Source: a phage
Direction: 5' to 3' (one strand)
DNA length: 64,000 nt
Sequence record: OZ346164.1
In this document: positions 5,390 through 63,381 of the stretch, in pieces
How positions within the stretch are numbered: the first letter of the stretch is position 1
Layout: each line of letters begins with the position of its first letter
Notes under the pieces: model-generated
The model's database searches: none
Told to the model about the DNA's origin: nothing
Seen by the model: the letters and a program-made list of their open reading frames with translations, nothing else
Program-made: the position numbers and the translations under genes

Positions 5390-5822
5390 AATGACCTCAA
5401 AGTTATATTAAATTTTGTATTACATTGAGTATAAAAATAAGCTATAATACCTGACTTGTCAACAGATTTTATAGCTTATTTGGCAGATTTTTTATAAGGC
5501 TACTGCCATCCTTCCATACCAGACCACACCATGCCAAACCAGACTTCACATCACCTTACCGTGCAATACATTACTTAAAAACCCTCTTAAAAGGGTCTTA
5601 AGTGATGCTGGTGAGTACCCGTTGGTTTATGCTGCTCAGTATACTCACCAAATTTTCTATGTCAACAACTTTTTATATAAAAGTCCTGATAGCTATATGT
5701 GTTACAAAACAGAAGATTGTGAACAAGACACCCATTGCAAAGGATGTGTTCAAAAGCTTACTTGTGATGTAAGACAACACAAAGATAACTAATGCAAATA
5801 GTATGATTATGCTTAGCATAGT

Positions 5823-6926
5823 TTACTCATAATCCCTAATAACTAGCCCGACAGGGAACTGTAAAGAACCCTTACGAGTCATCTTCTGGAACTGAACCGT
5901 TAGAGGCTTCCCGATAAACTCTTCAGGATGCTCAGCAAGATACTGTTTCTTCTCATGAGTAGTCTTCCATGAGACATCTACAAAGACGTTAGGAAGAGTC
6001 TCTACAACGAACTTACCATGACCACGTTTATCAGTCTTTACACCAGTAACTTTAAACTCTTCAGTGTGCATCTTCTTGTGCTTAATCAAGAAGTATGAAC
6101 GGTGACCACACTCATAGAAAGATTCTTCAGAGATTGAACGGTACATTGCACCTTCAAACTTAGCTTCAACCCACTTATCATGAGCTTCATCAAATTCTTC
6201 CCAAGAATTTACACGACGAGACTTAACAGGAACAACTTTACAGCCATCTCTAAAGTCATTCAATGGTGAAGTCTCAATAATATCTCTACGCTCAGGCCAC
6301 GTCTTAGTGCTGTCACAGATATCGTACCAGTAAAACTTGAGTAAATGTCGGTCAGGATTGTCTTCATTTTTAATCATGGAGACAATATCTTCTAAGTCCC
6401 ACCCATGAGCATAAATCTCACCATCAAATTCATCAACATCTTTATGGAGCCTCAACATTGCCATAATGTCAGGTATTAGCTCAGTAGGAATTTTATAAAT
6501 AGTGTTCTCACGAGAATATGCTGTAAATACACTGCCAATACTCAAGTGTCTTGAAATTCTACAACGGACACCATCAAGTTTTGGTTGAGCATCAGCAGGG
6601 AACTTCAGATACTTTGCATGGCTAACCTTTGCAGCATCATGAGCAAGCTGTACACCTACCTTCTCAGTATTCTGTGCAGACTCTTTTGTGTAAGCATAAC
6701 CTTTGCGGTCTACTTGCTTTTTATACTTAGCAGCAACTTCAAAGAGAGCTTGCTGTTCAGCATTACGCTCATTCTTTTTACCGATGTTCTTAGGCTCTGC
6801 TGTGTACTCTTCAAACATCATCTTGCCATTTTCTTTACCATAGGTTGTAATAACTTTGTTACCTATAGCACCGCATGACCAGATGTTGAAGGAACCGTCT
6901 TTATTTTGTTTGTATAGTGTTGTCAT
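5823..6926 (-). CDS. ATP-dependent DNA ligase
   Basis: Adenylation motif I KLDGVRC and overall size of T7-type ligases. Confidence 0.8.
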   Translation of the reverse strand: MTTLYKQNKDGSFNIWSCGAIGNKVITTYGKENGKMMFEEYTAEPKNIGKKNERNAEQQALFEVAAKYKKQVDRKGYAYTKESAQNTEKVGVQLAHDAAKVSHAKYLKFPADAQPKLDGVRCRISRHLSIGSVFTAYSRENTIYKIPTELIPDIMAMLRLHKDVDEFDGEIYAHGWDLEDIVSMIKNEDNPDRHLLKFYWYDICDSTKTWPERRDIIETSPLNDFRDGCKVVPVKSRRVNSWEEFDEAHDKWVEAKFEGAMYRSISEESFYECGHRSYFLIKHKKMHTEEFKVTGVKTDKRGHGKFVVETLPNVFVDVSWKTTHEKKQYLAEHPEEFIGKPLTVQFQKMTRKGSLQFPVGLVIRDYE

Positions 6927-7228
6927 TTTCTCTTACCACCAATCTCTACGTCGATAACCTGAACATCACCAGCAACATCAAACTTATGAATGATGCTTTC
7001 CACAGTGTAAGTCCAACCATCAATGCGAACCAACTCACCTTCTCGTGGGACGATTGGATTACGTTGAGCTATGGTTGTAGTGGAGTGAACAACATCATAA
7101 CGATAGATATAGTTTACTAATACTTCCATCGTGAAAACCTCACTCAATAACCGTAGTATGTGATTGACCATTTTTGCCATAGCTATAAGATGTTGTTGTT
7201 TGAGAGTTTGGGCATCTGACAACAACAA
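6923..7228 (-). CDS. hypothetical protein (start uncertain)
   Basis: 101 aa ORF; 5' end overlaps lipoprotein gene so true start probably an internal Met. Confidence 0.3.
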   Translation of the reverse strand: MLLSDAQTLKQQHLIAMAKMVNHILRLLSEVFTMEVLVNYIYRYDVVHSTTTIAQRNPIVPREGELVRIDGWTYTVESIIHKFDVAGDVQVIDVEIGGKRK

Positions 7229-9097: not shown

Positions 9098-9326
9098 TAC
9101 ATCTGGTCAATACACTCGCAAGGTGTACCAGTTCTCTTATGAACTTCTCCGCATTTCTACGGAGTGTCGGACTATATCACGTAGCAGTGGTGCTACCGTT
9201 GCACTTGGGATGGTCATTAGCTTACCACCCTACTCTACTCAGTTCATACGTTAAGTATGCTTTTCGATAGTCTCTGAACGTTCCTCTTAAGAGGCTTCGC
9301 TGCTGATTACCATATCTTTACAGACT
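9098..9326 (-). other. group I-like intron in DNA polymerase gene
   Basis: Minus strand carries GTTCAGAGACTA (R-like) and GATATAGTCCG (S-like) core elements; splits motif B; no ORF. Confidence 0.6.
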
Positions 9327-11539
9327 TAGGCTTCCAGCAATTCACAACGTTTTACATGCGCCACTGACGCATAAATGCCATTTTTGGCTTTCTTACGACC
9401 TTTTGTAATCTCGTGGAGAAGTTCCTCATCCTGTGTCTCCCTACAACGAACAATGTCTTCTTCCTTGTTCAGACCAAAGTAAATACTATTCAGTGTATGT
9501 GCATCAGTACCTGTGTAGACTTCATAGAGGTCATTCTCAGCATCATAACGCAGATACTTGTCAGTTTCTGGGTTAAGATACTTGTCAAGATGCTTGCAGT
9601 AGTATCTACCATCATCTTGCTTAGTGAACTCAACTGACTCTTTACCCTCAGTTACCGCTTTAGTGAAGTCTTCATCACCCATAAAGTTACAAAGAAGAAC
9701 TAGCTGGGCTGAGTTTTGGTCTACAGAGACAACGTTAGTACCTTCTTCACAAATCCACACCTCCCTCATAGGTGCTCCATAGACAGCAGCACCAGACGGT
9801 ACGTTTACAATACCATATTGTGTCATACGTCCAGTTGAAGTACCAAACACCATTGCACCAGCACTAAGGCGACCATCAGGACGAATCTGGTTCAACCAAC
9901 CTTTTTCATCATCTTTTGAGTTCTCAATAGTTCTACGTCGGTGCATCAAAGTATAGTACTTAGCAATCTTCTGTCCAAGCTCACCTTCAATCGTATCATA
10001 AGATGATTCAGTAAGTTTTGGTGAAGTACGGATTAAGCAAGGCTCAAGCAAATCTGTGTATTTCTTCACAGACCAGTTATGCTCAATGTACTGGACACCT
10101 TCATGCTCAACATAGCTCAAACCACACCGCTCAACCATTTCCTGCCACTTAGGATGCTTTGTAATCATCTTTTTATTGTCTTTGAAACGACAAACTTTGA
10201 TAGGGCGACCATCTGAGTCTTTCTTGTAATTCCAGTCATCTGGAATCCAACCAACTGATTTCAAGTAGTCTTTAACAACTGCTACCTGAGTCATACGAGA
10301 AACTTCAAACTCAATTGGTGTATATGGTGCATCAATCAAACCTGTGTAGCGACTTGACTCAAGTTCAAAGTGGTTAACAACGTGGCTGTTATAGTACTTC
10401 ACAGTTTTGACTGTTTTTACTGGCTTCCAGTCTTTGCATTTCTTACCAATCTTTGCGTTCAACTCATTGCAAATTGCACGAGCATCCTTCATTGCTACAA
10501 AACCTTCCTTGTACTCTTCACCAGTTACAGAGTTGGTTGGTGTATAGCAATTCCTTTTTTCAATGTTAAAAATCTTTGTAGTTGGCTTACCAAATGGTTT
10601 GATTTCGTATGTCTGCATCTCACCATTACGTACCTGCTGACGATACTTTGTCTTAGGGTACTTGGTAATTCTTTTCAGTCCATCTGCATGACCAAATGTT
10701 TCAACATACTCATTCCAAGCTTTTGCAAACTCTTCTCCAGTGACTTTACCTTTGGTCTTAATAGTTGGAGGAAGATGTGGTTCAACCTCTGAAGCAAGCT
10801 CATTAGTCAACTTGTCAAGTTCCTTTACATGGAACTCCATAAGCTCTTTATCAGCTTTCCAACCATTAATAGCTTGTTGACTCATCCAGAAAGATGTTTC
10901 TTTAGCTCGCATGTAGGTTTCATAAGTGTCTATGCCACACTTCTTAAGCTTGAGATACTCATTATCAAGTGCCCGTTTAGTTTTGGCGTTAATACGGATA
11001 TCTTCTACAACACGAGTGAAGATTTCTGCATTCCACACACCCCAATGTTCAATCTCTGGTTTACGAACACCAACACGAGCACCCCATGCAGCCAAGCCAT
11101 GAGCACCTTTATAACCCTTTGGAGTTGGTCTATCCATCCACTGAACACGAGACTGGATAAGAGAATCCTGAAAGAAATTACTCCACGGCTTACACTTTGG
11201 ATTATCAAAGTTCCATAAATCCGGTGCAATGTGATTGAAAACCCACCAGTCATAACCTAGACCATTATGAATGCAAAGACGTTTTGCCTTTAACGCAAAC
11301 TCAACACCTTCACGTAAGCCACCCTTAATGTACTTGGTATACTTGTGACCGAGGATAGGCTCATCTGTAAAGACCCATACAGGCGGCTCTTTATCGTCAG
11401 ATTTATAGTCTGCGAAAGCCATTACGTGCACTTTAGTGAACTCAAGGAGTAAACCATCAGTTTCTGTATCACCAACTAAATGTAAGTTTTTAAAATCTAC
11501 GTTTTCCATTTTTACTCCCTCTAAAATCATTAACCTCAT
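9326..11539 (-). CDS. DNA polymerase (family A), exon 1 incl. 3'-5' exonuclease
   Basis: Exo I motif DTETDGL, motif A-like VSVDQNSAQLVLL, ends RKKAKNGIYA (first half of motif B); annotated stop probably lies in intron. Confidence 0.8.
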   Translation of the reverse strand: MRLMILEGVKMENVDFKNLHLVGDTETDGLLLEFTKVHVMAFADYKSDDKEPPVWVFTDEPILGHKYTKYIKGGLREGVEFALKAKRLCIHNGLGYDWWVFNHIAPDLWNFDNPKCKPWSNFFQDSLIQSRVQWMDRPTPKGYKGAHGLAAWGARVGVRKPEIEHWGVWNAEIFTRVVEDIRINAKTKRALDNEYLKLKKCGIDTYETYMRAKETSFWMSQQAINGWKADKELMEFHVKELDKLTNELASEVEPHLPPTIKTKGKVTGEEFAKAWNEYVETFGHADGLKRITKYPKTKYRQQVRNGEMQTYEIKPFGKPTTKIFNIEKRNCYTPTNSVTGEEYKEGFVAMKDARAICNELNAKIGKKCKDWKPVKTVKTVKYYNSHVVNHFELESSRYTGLIDAPYTPIEFEVSRMTQVAVVKDYLKSVGWIPDDWNYKKDSDGRPIKVCRFKDNKKMITKHPKWQEMVERCGLSYVEHEGVQYIEHNWSVKKYTDLLEPCLIRTSPKLTESSYDTIEGELGQKIAKYYTLMHRRRTIENSKDDEKGWLNQIRPDGRLSAGAMVFGTSTGRMTQYGIVNVPSGAAVYGAPMREVWICEEGTNVVSVDQNSAQLVLLCNFMGDEDFTKAVTEGKESVEFTKQDDGRYYCKHLDKYLNPETDKYLRYDAENDLYEVYTGTDAHTLNSIYFGLNKEEDIVRCRETQDEELLHEITKGRKKAKNGIYASVAHVKRCELLEA

Positions 11540-25175: not shown

Positions 25176-26375
25176 ATGAACAAAGTACAGATTATTAAAA
25201 AGAATGGCTCACTTGAAGAACCTGATATCAAAAAAGTTTTAGCAGCAGTCACAAAGTCAGCTAACAGAGTTGGTTATAAAGAGCTTCCACCAGATGTTAC
25301 TCAAGCTCTTGAGTCAGCATTTATGAGGATTCTGGTAAAGTCCACTAAGCAGAATAATTTGCTAATTTCGGTAAATGATATTCACAGTATTGTTGAGGGT
25401 GCTTTGGCAGAAGTCAATCACGAGATTTATGAGTCTTACTCAACATATAGAAATTACCGTAAAGAGGTTGCTCAAAATTGGGATGAACTCTACCAGAAGA
25501 CCAAAGATACACTCTTCTTAGGCGACCGAGAAAACGCTAATTTTGACAGCAGTTTAATTTCTACAAAAGGCTCAATTATTCGTGGTTACCTGACTAAAGA
25601 AATCTTTAAACAGTACCATTTAACACCAGAGGAACTTGAAGCCATTGAAAAAGGATTTATCTATATCCATGATTTAAGAGACCTAATTTTTGGTGGTATC
25701 AACTGTTGCCTGTTTGACATTGGTAAAGTCCTGAAAGGTGGCTTTGAAATGTCTGGCATTGAATATTGTGAACCGAAGTCTGTGCTGTCAGCCTTACAGG
25801 TTATTGGTGATGTAGTTCTTTCAGCAACTGCACAGCAATTTGGTGGCTTTACTTTAGCAGAGATTGATAAGGTACTTGTACCGTATGCTAAGAAGTCTCT
25901 ACGTTACCATGCTGAAAAAGCAACAGCTTATGGTATTCCTAAAGAACATTACCACAACTATGTCATGGAGCAGCTACAGATTGAATTAACTCAAGGTTTT
26001 CAGTCTCTTGAAATGAAGCTCAATACTGTGCCTTGTAGCCGTGGTGATTTTGCATTCACAACTTTGACATTCGGGTTACTTGACTCAGATATGTCTAATG
26101 AAGATAACCGACTGCAATACATGATTGCGAGCACTCTCCTAGATGTTCGTATGAATGGACAAGGTAAGAGCAAGAAACCTGTTGTATTCCCTAAACTGGT
26201 TTATATTTATGACCAGAAGAGACACAATGAGAATATCTGTCAAGGCCACCTGTACAGTAAAGCTATTGAGTGTTGCTCTAAAGCTATGTATCCAGATTTC
26301 TTAAGTGTATCTGGACATGGTGCTGTAGCAGAGGCTTTTGAGCGTTCTGGCAAGGTAATTTCCCCGATGGGTTAA
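25176..26375 (+). CDS. nrdD: anaerobic ribonucleotide reductase, exon 1
   Basis: ATP-cone N-terminus; reading frame interrupted, resumes at 26678. Confidence 0.75.
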   Translation: MNKVQIIKKNGSLEEPDIKKVLAAVTKSANRVGYKELPPDVTQALESAFMRILVKSTKQNNLLISVNDIHSIVEGALAEVNHEIYESYSTYRNYRKEVAQNWDELYQKTKDTLFLGDRENANFDSSLISTKGSIIRGYLTKEIFKQYHLTPEELEAIEKGFIYIHDLRDLIFGGINCCLFDIGKVLKGGFEMSGIEYCEPKSVLSALQVIGDVVLSATAQQFGGFTLAEIDKVLVPYAKKSLRYHAEKATAYGIPKEHYHNYVMEQLQIELTQGFQSLEMKLNTVPCSRGDFAFTTLTFGLLDSDMSNEDNRLQYMIASTLLDVRMNGQGKSKKPVVFPKLVYIYDQKRHNENICQGHLYSKAIECCSKAMYPDFLSVSGHGAVAEAFERSGKVISPMG

Positions 26376-26677
26376 CAAGCTCTATAGCTCATCTAAAACG
26401 TGCCTAAACAGGGAAACTCTACAGATGTAGACAATCCTGTGCTAAATGATGTACGATGTAAGAAACTATACAACATAGGAGTCTTACATGCCAAATAACT
26501 TCGAATATGAGTTTGAATACATCTAAATGCCGAACGACTAACCGTGATGAATGTAGCGGTGTAGGGTCAAGCGACTCGAAATGGTACGCTACTTAGAAAT
26601 AAGTAGAAGATATAGTCTGGACTTACTGGCGACAGTAAGCAGCTTGAATAAAGCGGGGTAAGCTTAGCGAACTTACT
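26376..26677 (+). other. group I-like intron in nrdD
   Basis: About 300 nt without ORF, contains CAGGGAA/ATCCTGT (P4-like) and GACTAACC/AGATATAGTCT (P7 R/S-like) elements. Confidence 0.6.
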
Positions 26678-27636
26678 TGAACAACAAGTGTAGAGCATTT
26701 TTATCACCATACCATAACGAACATGGTGAAGAGTTTTATGTAGGTCGTGCTAACATTGGTGCTGTATCTTTGAACTTACCAATGATTTATCAGTACACCA
26801 AAGAGAATGGCTTAGATTTCTGGAAAGAGCTTGATAAGTACCTAGAAATGATTCGCAGCTTCCACAAGAAACGTTACGAAATGATTGCTAATATGCCAGC
26901 AAGTTCTAACCCTCTTGCATTCACACAGGGTGGTCTGTACAAAGGGAATAAGAAACCTACTGACAAGGTTGGCTGGGATATCGTGAAGTCCTTCACAGCT
27001 TCTTTTGGGGTTACTGCGCTTGATGAGCTATCTGTTCTTGCTGAAGGTAAACGACTCCATGAAGTTGGAAGCTGTAGTTTTGCATATGATGTTCTGGCAT
27101 ACATTAACATGAAAACTGAAGAGTTTAAGAACGAAGATGGCTTCTTGTATGCGGTATATGGCACTCCAGCAGAATCACTTTGTGGAACTCAGTTAAAACA
27201 GTTCAGAGATATGTTTGGCGTTATTAAAGGTGTCTCTGACAAGGAATACTTTACAAACAGTTTCCATATGAATGTTGCAGCAGACATCTCACCATTTGAG
27301 AAGCAGGACTTAGAAGAGCCATTCTTCCATATCTGTAGAGGTGGTAGAATCCAGTATGTAAGGGTAGCTAACCCAGAAAACTTAACAGCACTTAAAAGTT
27401 GTATTACAAGAGGGATGTTGAAAGGTTTCTATCAGGGGCTTAACTTTGACTTAGCAATCTGTGAACATTGTGGTAACAGACCAAAGGCTGATGTTGAAGA
27501 ATGTGAGGTTTGCCATTCACATGATATCTCTGTGATTAACAGGGTGTGCGGGTACTTGTCATTCACAAAAATTAAAGGTCAGTCTCGAATGAATGACGCT
27601 AAGATGGCAGAAATTAAGGATAGGGTTTCTATGTAA
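26678..27636 (+). CDS. nrdD: anaerobic ribonucleotide reductase, exon 2
   Basis: C-terminal glycyl-radical motif RVCGYLSF and Cys4 zinc site CEHCG...CEVCH. Confidence 0.8.
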
Positions 27637-57050: not shown

Positions 57051-58466
57051 ATGAGCGAGTTATTTAAACATGCGCACCTTCATGCAGGTCGAACTGAAAA
57101 TGGTGCTGTAAACCATACTTCATCAATGTCTGCTCTGGTAGACTTCTACAAAGCCGCTGGCTCAAGCCGTAGCAATGTAGAAGTCTTACCAGACCTGTTC
57201 TACAAAGCTTTGCGTGAGGATGTTGATGTTGCAGTTCGTATTTTACTGCATATGCGAGATGTACGAGAGGGTATGGGTGAGCGTAAAGCCTTCCGAACTG
57301 TTTTACTTCAAGCAATTGAAGATAAGGTTTTAGAACCTACACAGGTTCTTCGCATTATGGATAAGATTGCAGAACTTGGTCGTTTTGATGACTTCAAAAT
57401 CTTCGTAGGTACTCGTTTTGAGACAGATGCCTTCAAACATTTAGAAGCAGCATTACTAGACCCTGCAACAGCAGGTTTGGCAGCTAAGTGGTTACCACGA
57501 GTCAAACCACGTCATAAGCAGTTTGTAAAACGTTTCTGCAAGTTTGCCAACTTGAGTGAGAAAGAGTACCGCACACTGTTGTCTGCACTATCTGATACAG
57601 TTGAGCAAAAAATCTCTGCTAATGAGTTTGGTAAGATTGACTACAGTAAGATTCCTTCACTTGCTGCTGCACGTTACCAAAAACTGTTTAACCGTAAAGA
57701 TGGAGAGCGTTACAAAGCTTACATCGAGTCCTTATCAAAAGGTGAGACTAAGATTAACGCTGGTGCTGTTTACCCATACGATGTGATTAAATCTGTCAAG
57801 TATGGTAATGCAGATGTTGCTAATGAGCAGTGGAAAGCACTACCAAACTGGATGGCAGAAGGTGAAAACATCTTGTGTATGTCTGATGTATCAAGTTCAA
57901 TGTCTTGGGTGAATTTTGGCTCCATTACTGCTCTGGATATTGGTGTATCACTTGCCTTGTATGTAGCAGAACGCAATACAGGTTGCTTTAAGAATGAGTT
58001 AATGGTTTATTCAACAAACCCTCACTTCATCGAACTGAGTGGTGATTTACGAAACCGTCATCGTCAGGTGATGCGACACGTTGAATATGGCTCAACTAAC
58101 TTACAAGCAGCTTTTGACCGCATTCTTGAAACAGGTAAAAGAAACAACTTGACTCAGAAAGATATGCCAAGTAAGCTTATCATCTTCTCCGATATGGAGT
58201 TCAATCAGGTTGATGGAGCTAACGGTCGTACAAACTTTGAAGCAATTCAGAGTAAGTACAAAAAAGCTGGATATGAGATGCCACAACTGGTATTCTGGTA
58301 CTTAGCAAACCGTAATGGTACTTGCGAAGTATCTGTTAAGGATAACGGTGTAGCAATGTTATCAGGGTTCTCTCCAGCCACTTTAAAAGCTCTGCTTGGT
58401 GGTGAGAAGTTTGACCCAATCAGTGTAATGCTCAAAGCAGTAATGATTGACCGTTATATCTGGTAA
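57051..58466 (+). CDS. von Willebrand factor A domain protein
   Basis: MIDAS-like DVSSSMS motif in C-terminal half; 471 aa. Confidence 0.5.
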   Translation: MSELFKHAHLHAGRTENGAVNHTSSMSALVDFYKAAGSSRSNVEVLPDLFYKALREDVDVAVRILLHMRDVREGMGERKAFRTVLLQAIEDKVLEPTQVLRIMDKIAELGRFDDFKIFVGTRFETDAFKHLEAALLDPATAGLAAKWLPRVKPRHKQFVKRFCKFANLSEKEYRTLLSALSDTVEQKISANEFGKIDYSKIPSLAAARYQKLFNRKDGERYKAYIESLSKGETKINAGAVYPYDVIKSVKYGNADVANEQWKALPNWMAEGENILCMSDVSSSMSWVNFGSITALDIGVSLALYVAERNTGCFKNELMVYSTNPHFIELSGDLRNRHRQVMRHVEYGSTNLQAAFDRILETGKRNNLTQKDMPSKLIIFSDMEFNQVDGANGRTNFEAIQSKYKKAGYEMPQLVFWYLANRNGTCEVSVKDNGVAMLSGFSPATLKALLGGEKFDPISVMLKAVMIDRYIW

Positions 58467-58484: not shown

Positions 58485-58513
58485 TTGACAATGTGTTTAA
58501 TACCCTTTAATAT
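58485..58513 (+). promoter_or_regulatory. sigma70-like promoter upstream of tRNA cluster
   Basis: TTGACA-17-TAATAT, flanked by AAGGGTATT/AATACCCTT inverted repeat. Confidence 0.5.
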
Positions 58514-58630
58514 GTTCTACATAGTAGCGAAATGAGAGCTTTTCTAAGATACTGAAAAATATTTTAAAAAAGTTCTTGACAATCACTAAAAAATAATGTT
58601 AAAGTGGTTACATAGAGTTTGAAAAGTTTA

Positions 58631-58708
58631 TCTCTGTTTAGCTCAGCTTGGTAGAGCGTTCCGTTTGGGGCGGTAAGGCCGGAGGTTCAAGTCCTCCAAC
58701 AGAGACCA
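58631..58708 (+). tRNA. tRNA-Pro (anticodon UGG)
   Basis: 7 bp acceptor, D stem GCTC/GAGC, loop TTTGGGG, T arm GGAGG-TTCAAGT-CCTCC. Confidence 0.75.
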
Positions 58709-58793: not shown

Positions 58794-58883
58794 GTTTTGA
58801 CAGAAGACCAATTACAGCAAACTTAATCTACTCATCTGAAAGTTAATCGGACAAAGAAGATATTTGGTCTGGTCATTAAGAAT

Positions 58884-58960
58884 TGCGGGTATAGAGAAAG
58901 GGCGTCTCACATGTCTCATTAGCATGGTATCGGCAGGTTCGACTCCTGCACCCGCCTCCA
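58884..58960 (+). tRNA. tRNA with anticodon CAU (Met or Ile2), 1-72 mismatch
   Basis: Loop CTCATTA, T arm GCAGG-TTCGACT-CCTGC, acceptor pairs 2-7 only. Confidence 0.6.
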
Positions 58961-59042
58961 AATTTACAGAAGACCGTTTACAGCAATATTTATTAAATTT
59001 TTAGCGGAAAAATTGAAAGATACGGTCTGGTAATACTAAATA

Positions 59043-59120
59043 TGGTTAGGAAGCACATAAGGTATGTGCGGTCGCCTGTTAAGCGAATGGCACAGGGTTC
59101 GAATCCCTGACTAACCGCAA
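59043..59120 (+). tRNA. tRNA-Asn (anticodon GUU)
   Basis: D stem GCAC/GTGC, loop CTGTTAA, T arm CAGGG-TTCGAAT-CCCTG. Confidence 0.7.
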
Positions 59121-59128
59121 AATTAAAT

Positions 59129-59216
59129 GTGTCGTTATCCCGTAGATGGTAGCGGTGGGGACTGTAAATCCCTTGTCATTGAGACTCGGTAGGTTCGACT
59201 CCTACACGGCACACCA
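59129..59216 (+). tRNA. tRNA-Tyr (anticodon GUA), long variable arm
   Basis: Acceptor GTGTCGT/ACGGCAC, loop CTGTAAA, about 15 nt variable arm, encoded CCA. Confidence 0.75.
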
Positions 59217-59221
59217 ATAAA

Positions 59222-59298
59222 GGCTATGTAGTTTAACTGGAGAAAATACTCCCCTGTCACGGGAGATGATGTGAGTTCAAGTCTCATCGTAGCCGCCA
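59222..59298 (+). tRNA. tRNA-Asp (anticodon GUC)
   Basis: Acceptor GGCTATG/CGTAGCC, stem CTCCC/GGGAG, loop CTGTCAC, encoded CCA. Confidence 0.75.
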
Positions 59299-59499
59299 AT
59301 TTTGAGAGGGCTATTTAGCCCCTCCCTTAAAGAGTTCTTACGAGTATTCTTTAAAGGAGCAGAAGACCAAATACAGCAAGAATGTATGATATTTTCAAGC
59401 CAATTCAATTTTGAAAAATTTAAAACTTGGTCTGGCTCAACAAATTTACAGAAGACCGTTTACAGCAAAACTTAAACAATCTATTTCTCGGTAAAGAAA

Positions 59500-59540
59500 A
59501 GGCGAAGGTTCGATTCCTTCACTCGGCAGAGGTCGAGTTG
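59500..59540 (+). ncRNA. tRNA-like T-arm plus acceptor minihelix (not a full tRNA)
   Basis: GAAGG-TTCGATT-CCTTC T-arm-like hairpin directly followed by ACTCGGC-AGAG-GTCGAGT hairpin and D-loop-like GTTGGTGTAATGGTAG. Confidence 0.4.
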
Positions 59541-59730
59541 GTGTAATGGTAGCACTTAAGATGATAAACAACGGTCTGGTAATTATCTTTGCAGTAGCTT
59601 ATGTGGCTAATTATGTCGTCCCATGAGTGCCGATGAATTTCCTTAGCATGATTCTAGATTAGCTTAATAGGAAATGACTCTACAGACCCTTTAGCAAGGT
59701 CTGCGTAGGTTACTGCAAAGATGATTTAAT

Positions 59731-60010: not shown

Positions 60011-60214
60011 AACCTTAGTTTTCGTTGCGTAGCGTCTATTTTGCAAATTTAAAATAAATGCAAACGACAATGTTTTTCTGGCAGTAGCTTGATAGGCTAA
60101 ACACCAGTGAGGTCTTCCAATCCCTCATCAAAGAATTTGGCGTACTCGCCCACGGTATGATTAATAAGGTGGGCATCTTTAAGGGCTTTCTAATAGAGTC
60201 TTTAAAGATAATTA

Positions 60215-60296
60215 CGGGGCGTATCTCAGCGGTCTTCTAAACCGCCGTTAACCGAGTAAGTGGAGTATGCGGGTTCGAGTCCTGCCGCCTCGACCA
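60215..60296 (+). tRNA. atypical tRNA-like gene, possible anticodon UCU (Arg)
   Basis: Good T arm and acceptor (CGGGGCG/CGCCTCG, CCA encoded) and GCGGT-CTTCTAA-ACCGC anticodon-like hairpin, but D-arm spacing non-canonical. Confidence 0.35.
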
Positions 60297-60623: not shown

Positions 60624-60881
60624 CCTAATAAGATTTTAAAGCCAAGCTTCATTCGGATGTCGCTTTGGTATCCCTCGTGTATTGTCGTACACACTGATAA
60701 AACACCTAGTAGGTGTCACGGAGAAGAGATAATATCAAGCTCTCCAAAGGTTCTAGTCACCGGATTAAACAAGACTATGCAAAGACCTTTTTAGGTCTTT
60801 TTAGAGGGCTTCTAAGGTTATTACAGCTTGTTGTGGAACCTTGTTGCTTAGGTTCTTAGAAGTTCTCTAAAAAGATTTAAT

Positions 60882-60958
60882 GCACCTATAGCCCAACTGG
60901 TAGAGGCAGCAGACTTAGAATCTGCTCAGTGTGAGTTCGAATCTCTCTAGGTGTACCA
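60882..60958 (+). tRNA. tRNA with Leu anticodon UAG but short variable arm
   Basis: Stem GCAGA/TCTGC, loop CTTAGAA, discriminator A, CCA encoded; only 5 nt variable loop. Confidence 0.55.
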
Positions 60959-61287: not shown

Positions 61288-61290
61288 ATT

Positions 61291-61380
61291 CAGAGGTCAA
61301 GTGAAAGACCGCTTTGAGTCAACTGAAGACCGTAACAAATTCCACGAAGTTGAGTTAGCGGCACAACTTCAGACCTCTTT
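61291..61380 (+). ncRNA. long structured hairpin element between tRNAs
   Basis: CAGAGGTC ... GACCTCTT closing stem around about 75 nt containing GAAGACCG motifs; no T-loop. Confidence 0.35.
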
Positions 61381-61383
61381 CAT

Positions 61384-61637: not shown

Positions 61638-62195
61638 ATGAGATATTTGAAGTATGCTTCATGGATTTTCTTAGCTTTGTTAGAGCCATTTGCAGCAATC
61701 TTAGCAGTTATCTTAGCACCTTTTGTAGTTCCATTCTACAGTGAGAAGAAAGGGCACTTACCTTTCGGGTTCAGATGGATGGAGACATATGACAACCCAA
61801 TTGATGGTGATGAAGGTCACGTTAAAAGATGGGCTAATATTAGATGGATTGGTAAACTAGGTGTCTACATGCAAAGAGTCGGATGGCTCTGGAGAAACAA
61901 AGCTTATAACTTCTCTTACCATGTATTAGGAAGAGATGTAAGAGATGTTACTAAGTGGAAAGGTAATATCAACGTAAGTTCTGACCCCGAAGATAATCAG
62001 ACAGGTTATCTCCTAATGTGGAACAGTAATGCTTGGGGATTATTCGCTTTTATCCCATCAATTAAAATCTTTGGTAAACAATTTTACTGGAGAATTTATA
62101 TTGGATGGAAACTAAAAAGTGTTGTCCCAGAAGAAAGAGCATTCTCAAGGGAAAGAGTTATGTTGGCATTCTTTATTCATCCACTGAGAAAGTAA
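61638..62195 (+). CDS. membrane protein encoded inside tRNA cluster
   Basis: 185 aa, hydrophobic N-terminus, Trp-rich. Confidence 0.45.
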   Translation: MRYLKYASWIFLALLEPFAAILAVILAPFVVPFYSEKKGHLPFGFRWMETYDNPIDGDEGHVKRWANIRWIGKLGVYMQRVGWLWRNKAYNFSYHVLGRDVRDVTKWKGNINVSSDPEDNQTGYLLMWNSNAWGLFAFIPSIKIFGKQFYWRIYIGWKLKSVVPEERAFSRERVMLAFFIHPLRK

Positions 62196-62630: not shown

Positions 62631-62646
62631 ATTTCAAAGGTGCTTA

Positions 62647-63381
62647 ATGAAAGAGATGACAGAACAAGGTAAGGAGATTTTTAATCTCTTAAAAACTGGT
62701 AAAGGGTTCTCTAACCCGCTTATTACTGGTGCAGCAGTTCTCGGTGGAACCGTAGCTGCCTCTACATCACTTGTAAGCTCTATTAGTTCTGTAACAGACC
62801 CTACAATGAAGGAGAAGCTTGTTGCTGCTGGACTTACAACAGTCCTTCTAAACAGCTTTACAACAAGCCTGACAAGCACTACAGCAACCACTAAGACCCT
62901 AACAGACTATGGTCAAAAGTCTATTGATGAGTTTTCATCACGTATGCAGGTAGCAAAGGGATACTCCAATGTTATGGGTGCAGCAGGAGAACAAGTTGGT
63001 TGTACACCATTCAGTGGTATTATGGGTGTTGCTACAGAATATGGTCAAAAAGCTATTGATACGATTAACAGTACACTAGAGAGTGTTAATGGTGTGTTAA
63101 GTGACTTACAAGATGCTATTGATAAGGGTCTTGATACTGTTTCTGATTTAGCTAATCAGGCTGTTAGTAAGATTAATGAAGGTATTTCAAAGATTACAGC
63201 TTATGCAGATGAAGTTGTGCAGATGATTGAAGAAGAAGCTGCCCTTATTGCAGAGTACCTTAAAACGAATATCAATGGGTTCTTAGCAGGTATCTTACCA
63301 GACTGGTTTGATGATGCTTGTAAAACTGGTGTAATCGACACTATTGCAACACCAGAAATGAAGAACGCATTGCAGAAATAA
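62647..63381 (+). CDS. hypothetical protein encoded inside tRNA cluster
   Basis: Start moved to Met after tRNA-Phe (track start 62584 overlaps the tRNA); Ser/Thr/Ala-rich helical protein. Confidence 0.45.
   Translation: MKEMTEQGKEIFNLLKTGKGFSNPLITGAAVLGGTVAASTSLVSSISSVTDPTMKEKLVAAGLTTVLLNSFTTSLTSTTATTKTLTDYGQKSIDEFSSRMQVAKGYSNVMGAAGEQVGCTPFSGIMGVATEYGQKAIDTINSTLESVNGVLSDLQDAIDKGLDTVSDLANQAVSKINEGISKITAYADEVVQMIEEEAALIAEYLKTNINGFLAGILPDWFDDACKTGVIDTIATPEMKNALQK

Follow-up and report, generated by a model that had tools for sequence, protein, structure and literature searches.

Ro60 and the Y RNAs form a long-studied ribonucleoprotein (RNP), which is an autoantigen in patients with lupus or Sjögren's syndrome and serves bacteria in the quality control of RNA. 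To our knowledge, there are few bacterial and phage examples of Ro60 for which the RNAs have been identified. The window described here, a stretch of 64,000 nucleotides (nt) from sequence record OZ346164.1, belongs to a Felix O1-like phage of the genus Felixounavirus and carries four repeated units within its tRNA cluster, between positions 58801 and 59579. A gene for a protein with a predicted Ro60 fold lies upstream of them on the same strand. The four units are probably small non-coding RNA genes of one family and Y-RNA-like partners of this protein; the probability of this reading is estimated at about 0.72. The family, whose members are called handle RNAs below, is widespread across phages and apparently undescribed.

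The domains of the bacterial Y RNA YrlA, a partner of the Ro60 ortholog Rsr, follow the order 5' strand, V, T, closed "acceptor stem", D and 3' strand (Chen et al. 2014, PMC4201824). The search made in that study was limited to genomes with an annotated TROVE protein, and its phage example was ET08 (PMC4201824). In Thermus phage phiLo, phiRo60 and the RNAs Yrl1 and Yrl2, whose large internal bulge carries the CGAA motif by which they were identified, form a complex with the host PNPase in vitro (PMC12135203). For phage Bas63, the PhageMaP preprint noted the similarity of gp130 to Ro60 and guessed at nearby Y RNAs, proposing that some annotated tRNA genes are Y RNAs, but no RNA was identified (10.1101/2024.10.10.617714). 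In the P100-like Listeria phage CKA15, three very abundant non-coding RNAs are situated no more than 2 kb upstream of an Rsr-like gene; that study raised the idea of Y RNAs and detected the Rsr-like protein in virions (PMC12282133).

The 1.6 kb around the four units matches 265 phage records at 80-99% identity, mostly Felixounavirus of Escherichia, Salmonella and Shigella. The surrounding cluster contains 25 tRNA genes (ARAGORN), all on the + strand, between positions 58632 and 63556. Within the 64 kb the motif CAGAAGACC-N3-TACAGCAA is present in four copies, compared with 0.03 expected from shuffles. Exact matches to CAGAAGACCNNNTACAGCAA begin at 58801, 58967, 59360 and 59449 on the + strand; no further copy is found in the 64 kb with two mismatches allowed, and at least four matches occurred in none of 100 shuffles. 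All four units end in GGTCTGG, in agreement with the common boundaries that the sequence-only reading of this DNA had described.

The two boundaries are complementary to each other, a property that, like the Ro60-like gene, was absent from that reading. AGACC-NN at the 5' side pairs with NN-GGTCT at the 3' side, NN being AA/TT for units 1 and 3 but GT/AC for units 2 and 4. A stem of 7 base pairs (bp) thus closes every unit and leaves TACAGCAA single-stranded beside the 5' arm. The two variable positions of the stem covary among the unit copies of the window.

Unit 1 (58801-58872, + strand) is a short handle RNA. Its terminal stem, P1, is formed by 58805-58811 and 58864-58870 (AGACCAA/TTGGTCT), the octamer UACAGCAA occupies 58813-58820 (+), and the 3' G is at 58871. 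It is separated by 7 nt from tRNA-Glu upstream and by 11 nt from tRNA-Met downstream. Unit 2 (58967-59030, +), also short, has P1 at 58971-58977 and 59022-59028 (AGACCGT/ACGGTCT) and its octamer at 58979-58986; tRNA-Met lies 6 nt upstream and tRNA-Asn 13 nt downstream, and its folding z-score is -2.1. The third short unit (59360-59435, +) has P1 at 59364-59370 and 59427-59433 (AGACCAA/TTGGTCT), the octamer at 59372-59379 and an internal hairpin UUUUCAA...UUUUGAAAA. Unit 4 (59449-59579, +) is a long handle RNA that encloses a tRNA-like domain in permuted order; its P1 is formed by 59453-59459 and 59571-59577, and its octamer is at 59461-59468. Units 3 and 4 lie together in the spacer from tRNA-Asp to tRNA-Lys. 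The earlier description of four spacers between tRNA genes is thus correct for units 1 and 2, each of which lies between two tRNA genes, but not for units 3 and 4.

The four units are kept in order in Felixounavirus, Suspvirus and Mooglevirus, all members of the Ounavirinae. In some relatives (Felix O1, FO1a and garuso) an HNH endonuclease gene is inserted between tRNA-Asp and unit 3, a region that corresponds to 59299-59359 of the window. Alignments of these relatives break into 3-4 pieces, and unit 3 follows unit 2 at a distance that ranges from about 300 to about 850 nt.

The gene upstream of the units (57051-58466, + strand) codes for a 471-residue protein consisting of a helical, ring-type N-terminal part and a vWA domain with a MIDAS (metal ion-dependent adhesion site). 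It is assigned to Pfam DUF2828+DUF7788 and to PHROG 850, annotated "RNA-binding protein". A sequence search of the PDB gave no significant match. A profile of 40 homologs gave sub-threshold PDB matches only, of which four out of five were Ro60/TROVE chains aligned at the vWA MIDAS site, with E-values of 0.6-2 for Ro60. A fold search was therefore needed. The AlphaFold2 model calculated on the 40-homolog alignment has a predicted local distance difference test score (pLDDT) of 89.6 and a predicted template modelling score (pTM) of 0.88. Upon comparing this model with the PDB using Foldseek, the top 11 matches were all found to be Ro60/TROVE proteins aligned over their full length, with E-values of about 2e-7 and template modelling (TM) scores of up to 0.66. 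They include Xenopus and human Ro60, Deinococcus Rsr and the Ro60 of Thermus phage phiLo (9l5y and 9kop; E 2.5e-7). The matches that follow cover the vWA domain only, with E-values of 3e-3 or higher. The MIDAS residues D279-x-S281-x-S283, T349 and D381 are invariant in the 40 homologs. The model thus gives a confident prediction of a Ro60 fold, a HEAT-repeat ring followed by a C-terminal vWA domain, for this protein.

Homologs of the protein are encoded in 710 phage records (tblastn). Its ortholog in Bas63, bas63_0130 (gp130), is 97.5% identical. The homolog in Mycobacterium phage BigCheese is annotated "Ro-like RNA binding protein", yet it likewise belongs to DUF2828+DUF7788.

The handle motif accompanies homologous genes in other phages. 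Eighty IMG/VR loci with homologs of the protein were fetched, 75 of which have 38-47% identity to it. In these 75 distant loci there are 76 copies of TACAGCAA on the strand of the gene and 19 on the opposite one, the expectation being about 13 for each strand. Most copies on the gene strand are less than 700 nt from the gene, often in tandem. Pairing of the arms was evaluated at sites chosen by the octamer alone, taking the 7 nt that end one base before the octamer as the upstream arm and seeking their complement 20-260 nt downstream. A perfect 7-bp partner was found at 64 of 103 octamer sites, but at only 2 of 103 when the arms were shuffled. Pair counts on units that had been picked for perfect pairing are circular and were not used.

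The 3' arms were out of register in the MAFFT alignment of 22 short units (A2), and for this reason the short units were analysed by a descriptor scan with strand and reversal controls. The scan for the exact octamer and a 7-bp stem gave 50 sites on the gene strand versus 1, 1 and 2 in the reverse-complemented, reversed and complemented sequences. The variant octamer TTCAGCAA was enriched too. When the results were pooled, with close relatives of the window excluded, the total was 107 units, where each control gave about 8; of the 107, 72 are no more than 500 nt from the gene, in equal shares upstream and downstream. The pooled set contains 81 distinct units with 61 different arm sequences. 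Its consensus is WWWA-[A/U]G-R-N-U-N-N-N-U[A/U]CAGCAA ... N-N-A-N-Y-C[U/A]-G, the final G being present in 95% of units. The handle consists of a complementary stem of variable sequence, one nucleotide, the octamer U-A/U-CAGCAA, and a G after the 3' arm. There are two such units beside the gene in Yersinia phage P778 and in Campylobacter phage NCTC12673, and three in Listeria phage WIL-1, Staphylococcus phage S-CoN_Ph16, Enterococcus phage EfV12-phi1 and Mycobacterium phage BigCheese. Lack of conservation of the boundary motifs in related phages had been named in advance as an outcome that would speak against functional RNAs; the boundaries are kept, with heavy covariation, beside homologous genes in very distant phages.

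The relation of the units to tRNA genes varies among these phages. There are tRNA genes within 2 kb in 26 of the 82 distant loci, and all 216 of these tRNAs are on the gene strand. In one relative with a 47%-identical protein (L006), units with other arms are found in the spacers of its own cluster of 22 tRNAs. In the loci L009, L010, L064 and L076, in BigCheese and in the Staphylococcus phage, the units have no tRNAs nearby. The units might be cis-acting processing or stability elements of a tRNA operon, functionless once released, as would be in line with the 6-13 nt that separate units 1 and 2 from their neighbours and with the same-strand tRNAs at about a third of the related loci (26 of 82). 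This is improbable: many loci have units and no nearby tRNAs, the units go with the Ro60-like gene rather than with tRNAs as such, and the octamer, the covarying stem and the tRNA-like cargo go beyond what a cleavage site needs. The suggestion that the spacers are processing signals, which had been offered together with that of stable RNAs, is unsupported because units occur in loci without tRNAs.

The interior of unit 4 is organized as a tRNA that has been opened and closed at different points. All of its elements are on the + strand. The V hairpin (59484-59499) is followed by a T arm, GAAGG-TTCGATT-CCTTC (59504-59520), a closed 7-bp acceptor-like hairpin, ACTCGGC-AGAG-GTCGAGT (59521-59538), and a D arm, GTGTAATGGTAGCAC (59541-59555). 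A weak junction helix, ATCT/AGAT, is formed by 59479-59482 and 59559-59562. This helix, drawn by ARAGORN, replaces an "anticodon-like" helix CTTAA/TTAAG that was tried and had poor support, being 74% paired. In tRNA numbering, GTCGAGT corresponds to positions 1-7 and ACTCGGC to positions 66-72, the stem being closed by the loop AGAG. The tRNA invariants U8, A14, R15, G18, G19, A21 and G53:C61 and the T-loop TTCGATT are present, and the handle sits where a tRNA has its anticodon loop. The three elements that had been recognized from the sequence alone, namely the T-arm-like hairpin, the hairpin of 7 bp and the D-arm-like segment, are real, and there is no complete tRNA: in the native units no tRNA is called by ARAGORN or by the Rfam tRNA model.

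Upon permutation at the loop of the closed hairpin, ARAGORN called a tRNA with an "intron", which is the handle, in five of eight units. These are window unit 4 and the units of Citrobacter phage HP1, BigCheese, EfV12-phi1 and the metagenomic locus L053. None of the 532 controls (124 other rotations, 400 shuffles and 8 reversed sequences) was called. The closed stem is rewritten yet still paired in the Ounavirinae orthologs (ACTCGGC/GTCGAGT, ACACGT/GCGTGT and ACCCTTC/GAAGGGT). Over the orthologs of unit 4 in this subfamily, 92% of the alignment cells are paired, compared with 36-51% with slid partners. Eleven pairs change on both sides, compared with 2-6 when slid and 3.2 when shuffled, and none of 500 shuffles reached 11. 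Among 39 long units, nine have a T-arm hairpin, where 0.2 would be expected.

A covariance model, R1, was built from seven Ounavirinae unit-4 sequences only. It finds full-length counterparts in unrelated phages, and every one of these is on the gene strand: EfV12-phi1 (68.7 bits), L027 (64.7), L073 (57.3), BigCheese (51.6), L019 (46.1), L053 (46.0), L026 (40.8) and L006 (32.9). The model also detects window units 2 (39.3 bits) and 1 (30.6 bits) via the handle alone. In an alignment of 15 distant R1 matches, 94.8% of cells are paired, compared with 36-46% when slid, and 28 of 32 pairs vary on both sides, compared with 12-17 when slid. All seven pairs covary in the terminal stem and in the closed acceptor-like stem, whereas the last two pairs of the T stem are constant G:C, as in tRNAs. 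One of the loci with an R1 match, L026, has a permuted tmRNA at 1353-1676 (71.7 bits) upstream of its Ro60-like gene.

It is scarcely credible that the units are decayed tRNA genes. Only unit 4 holds T-arm and D-arm sequences that such pseudogenes would have left behind, units 1-3 being without tRNA features, and its order of T arm, closed acceptor and D arm is a circular permutation, which is beyond simple decay. This order is kept with compensatory changes from phages of Enterobacteria to those of Mycobacterium and Enterococcus, so that the covariation data already contradict the idea. Very little also speaks for the units being DNA-level repeats, whether inverted-repeat miniature mobile elements, recombination sites or homing-endonuclease targets. 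The repeated boundaries with inverted-repeat arms could be viewed in this way, as could the HNH insertion polymorphism in this region of Felix O1-like genomes. However, the 61 different arms are each still complementary, with G-U pairs tolerated, the motif is specific to the strand of the gene (50 versus 1-2), as are all R1 matches, and the internal helices covary. These properties bear the marks of selection acting on RNA and not on DNA.

The cargo enclosed by the handle is very diverse. In units 1-3 it is a small A/U-rich hairpin lacking tRNA features, and long units elsewhere contain other recurrent inserts. In L045 (5734-5833) the cargo resembles a tRNA-Thr in natural, unpermuted order. 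It reaches 52.9 bits with the Rfam tRNA model, although no more than 5 of 7 acceptor pairs form, and is a second topology of tRNA-like cargo.

Several handles are found at the start of the Ro60-like gene itself. In at least eight loci (L007, L012, L027, L032, L052, L065, L071 and L075) small handles end 1-6 nt before its Shine-Dalgarno sequence, and in Vibrio phage ValKK3 the 3' arm of a small handle covers the AUG (L087, 2965-3005). This layout resembles that of an operator and suggests translational autoregulation. We propose that the Ro60-like protein binds the handle, because the two are co-located on the same strand in phages that otherwise share little, because Ro60 and Y RNAs provide a precedent, and because small handles sit just before the Shine-Dalgarno sequence or on the AUG of the gene.

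The following sequence of events would be consistent with these data. The RNAs would be transcribed together with the tRNAs from promoters at 58485 and 58576. These are sigma-70-like sequences on the + strand before the first tRNA, TTGACA-17-TAATAT (58485-58513) and TTGACA-18-TAAAGT (58576-58605), each identified as a consensus match only (10 of 12 positions) and presumed to mark the start of a joint transcript of tRNAs and small RNAs; no terminator-like site is found on the + strand between 58600 and 59600. The units would then be freed by tRNA-processing enzymes, with RNase P acting at the 5' ends of downstream tRNAs and 3' trimming acting on upstream tRNAs. As units 1 and 2 are only 6-13 nt from tRNAs, these two activities would free both. 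The protein would bind the stem, of at least 7 bp (5'-A/U-G-N5 ... N5-C-U/A-3'), and the octamer, leaving the interior as cargo. The cargo may link the protein with further factors, in the way that Y RNAs connect Ro60 and PNPase, or may present a tRNA decoy; both roles are speculative. Two features of the gene context bear on them: the same-strand tRNAs near 26 of the 82 distant loci, and an RtcB-type ligase near the gene in a Listeria phage. The motif, the covariation of the stem, the tRNA-like fold, the Ro60 fold and the conserved same-strand co-location are shown by the analysis; we infer from this arrangement that the units are transcribed and processed into stable RNAs, as the sequence-only reading had suggested, that they are bound by the protein and that they have a function downstream of binding. 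The three very abundant non-coding RNAs upstream of the Rsr-like gene of CKA15 lend some support to expression from a relative.

A number of observations weigh against this interpretation. The binding of the octamer handle by the Ro60-like protein is suggested by co-location and analogy, the protein has no Pfam TROVE match, and the octamer is unlike the known Ro60-binding motifs (GNCGAAN0-1G and GGUCCGA). Unit 4 is not matched by the Rfam YrlA model at E<=10. When a strict 7-bp stem is required, only 51 of 82 distant loci have a unit within 1.5 kb. Folded as single sequences, units 1 and 3 have ordinary z-scores (-1.1 and -1.5), support for the junction helix of unit 4 is weak (74-80% paired), and the model-guided alignment of distant members (A5) is fitted to the structure of the model. 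In addition, gp130 alone protects T7 against the Ppl defence, whether its gene is on a plasmid or in the T7 genome itself (10.1101/2024.10.10.617714), showing that this activity is independent of the phage's own RNAs. Finally, the top CKA15 RNA is not a handle RNA, which leaves only the other two abundant regions as possible handle units.

Some of these points would also fit an RNA family that is real, but whose partner is not the Ro60-like protein. The partner could then be a host factor or another phage protein, or the units could be regulatory operators or decoys of the neighbouring gene, and co-location would reflect co-regulation and not a stable RNP. The analogical nature of the binding claim, the RNA-independent activity of gp130 against Ppl and the dissimilarity of the octamer to Ro60 motifs leave room for this explanation, and a role in regulation alone would suit the mini-handles at the ribosome-binding site. 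It is nevertheless unlikely. The units are tied to one gene family across phages of Gram-positive, Gram-negative and actinobacterial hosts that share few other genes. They occur 42 times upstream and 42 times downstream of the gene, often in tandem and with elaborate cargo, none of which an operator needs, and the arrangement of gene and RNAs matches the precedent of Ro60 and Y RNAs. The Y-RNA-like partnership is therefore preferred.

Extending the partnership to the whole family gives a more tentative picture, which is at present the less probable outcome. In it, the DUF2828 Ro60-shaped protein and a universal handle, made up of a covarying stem and UACAGCAA, would constitute a large, overlooked class of phage RNP that displays interchangeable cargoes, among them permuted tRNA mimics in which the protein-bound handle takes over the position of the anticodon loop. 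The cargoes would serve as tethers or decoys that counter host defences aimed at RNA or tRNA, or would help in the quality control of phage tRNAs. If this were true, it would represent a new protein-RNA recognition code and a modular display of RNA in model phages such as Felix O1, P100/A511, the KVP40 group and Bas63.

None of the GenBank records examined annotates the handle units. In several of them (L084, L089 and L092) tiny, spurious "hypothetical protein" coding sequences lie over the handle RNAs. In Bas63 (L092, 3730-3882) the spurious minus-strand coding sequence bas63_0137 partly covers units 3 and 4. Gene-level knockout screens may consequently have hit handle RNAs unknowingly. Genome annotation thus regularly overlooks these genes or lays small spurious open reading frames over them. 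The 710 phage records that encode the protein include widely used typing, biocontrol and model phages, and one ortholog, Bas63 gp130, has a proven anti-defence phenotype with RNA partners that had so far only been guessed. The present analysis supplies candidate RNAs with exact coordinates, a simple searchable signature and a putative recognition motif unlike the canonical one, and it connects the tRNA clusters of phages with mimicry of tRNAs. These candidates bear on the role of a phage Ro60-like RNP in infection, on its frequent placement by tRNA genes and on the diversification of RNA recognition by Ro60-type proteins.

The tRNA region of the window contains other structures. A hairpin at 61288-61383 (+ strand), between tRNA-Thr and tRNA-Val, has a z-score of -3.3, and none of 200 shuffles folds as well. 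A single GAAGACCG and a single GAAAGACCG occur in it. It is conserved within Felixounavirus, with one compensatory change from A:U to G:C in the helix GAAGTTG/CAACTTC. This hairpin had been listed beside the four units, at 61291-61380. It does exist, but it lacks the octamer and the 3' G, and is a separate conserved structure and not a fifth unit. Very stable long hairpins are found in the spacers 59580-59730 (-54.9 kcal/mol), 60170-60214 and 60787-60885 (+), and may be further structured RNAs. The repeat GCAGTAGCTTnnnnGGCTAA occurs at 59591 and 60082. Two tRNA-like sequences on the + strand are not called by ARAGORN: 60215-60293 has 31.7 bits with the Rfam tRNA model, and 60442-60516 matches the tRNA-Sec model only (23 bits). 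Two protein genes, 61638-62195 (DUF7338) and 62641-63381 (DUF7217), lie inside the cluster on the + strand.

At the gathering threshold, Rfam finds only tRNA, tmRNA and group I introns in the window and 12 other loci, and permissive scans of the window gave no match of YrlA or Y_RNA to the units. Group I introns of the window above the Rfam threshold are at 9147-9429 (- strand, 61.7 bits) and 26258-26639 (+ strand, 54.6 bits). No description of the handle motif was found in the literature searched; an earlier description elsewhere is possible. Literature searches on DUF2828 turned up only papers on plants and tardigrades, and those on the motif sequence only siRNAs and primers of no relevance.

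The small stable RNAs of T4, rnaC and rnaD (species 1 and 2), are co-transcribed and processed with the T4 tRNAs. Like the units described here, they are encoded next to phage tRNA genes on the same strand. T4 rnaC ends in the T-arm-like sequence CCGGG-TTCGAAT-CCCGG, and in rnaD only CACAGCAG is present, close to the 3' end. A terminal stem with the octamer by its 5' arm is missing from both RNAs, and both were rejected as relatives. In T4 the R1 model gives 22 bits (E 0.05), over tRNA genes only. The kinship with the T4 small RNAs, to which the spacers had been compared at first, is thus an analogy of context and does not indicate a common family. Permuted tRNA genes, tmRNA and viral tRNA-like structures share with unit 4 the acceptor/T minihelix and the D arm, conserved with tRNA invariants. 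Unlike these tRNA mimics, unit 4 has an acceptor stem closed by a loop and so no free CCA end unless it is cleaved, its anticodon loop is replaced by the handle, and it has no mRNA-like part.

The most abundant CKA15 RNA (26,236-26,727) was tried as a source of handle units and rejected: it maps to a separate, non-handle region of about 550 nt, which has its counterpart in the related Listeria phage WIL-1 (L089). There, a non-coding stretch of this length, at about 1420-1960 on the + strand, has its own promoter and lies 1 kb upstream of the Ro60-like gene. Downstream of the same gene in WIL-1 are an RtcB-type "tRNA splicing ligase" (5808-7019) and HD and NADAR genes; the placement of the ligase echoes, by analogy, bacterial rsr-rtcB operons.

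The gene for Bas63 gp130 occupies the same locus as that of the window protein, directly upstream of tRNA-Pro/Glu/Met/Asn/Tyr/Asp. The PhageMaP candidates are annotated tRNA genes, for which no RNA motif or structure was described, whereas the candidates proposed here are unannotated spacers. Phage phiLo and the window both combine a phage-encoded Ro60-fold protein with adjacent small RNAs, and the phiLo complex of Ro60, Yrl RNAs and PNPase is, by analogy, a plausible functional model for the window system. The phiLo and ET08 proteins are annotated TROVE, whereas the window system has another motif and another Pfam family and is known here from sequence.

YrlA and the handle RNAs have several properties in common. 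Both are encoded beside a gene for a Ro60-fold protein, within about 1 kb and on the same strand. The four units lie 335-1113 nt downstream of the gene on the + strand, well inside the limit of about 4 kb from a Ro60 ortholog that is used for YrlA. In both, the 5' and 3' ends form a terminal stem and a conserved motif follows directly after the 5' strand. Unit 4 has the tRNA-like domain order of YrlA, in which V and the T arm precede the closed acceptor stem and the D arm; this domain is missing from units 1-3, which are YrlB-like at most. They are short partners without a full tRNA domain beside a long RNA, as YrlB is beside YrlA. Full-length, sub-threshold matches to the YrlA family (RF02553, threshold 69 bits) were obtained for units of the Enterococcus phage (45.2 and 34.3 bits) and BigCheese (21.7 bits). 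These matches run through the T/acceptor/D core, while the outer YrlA stems with the GNCGAA motif are unmatched, showing that the tRNA-like core is common to YrlA and that the protein-proximal part is different. Together with the adjacent Ro60 fold, the domain order, the permuted tRNA calls and the covariation, these matches uphold the original suspicion of a Y-RNA-type mimic.

The differences concern the part of the RNA next to the protein, and the protein itself. The handle RNAs have U-A/U-CAGCAA in place of GNCGAAN0-1G, the putative Ro60-binding site of YrlA. There are up to four of them per locus, and in this window they are interleaved with functional tRNA genes. The associated protein is of the DUF2828+DUF7788 type and lies outside Pfam TROVE, to which the protein of the YrlA system belongs. 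By analogy with that system, the handle RNAs would be a YrlA-like variant with a new handle motif, and their partner a divergent Ro60-fold protein widespread in phages.

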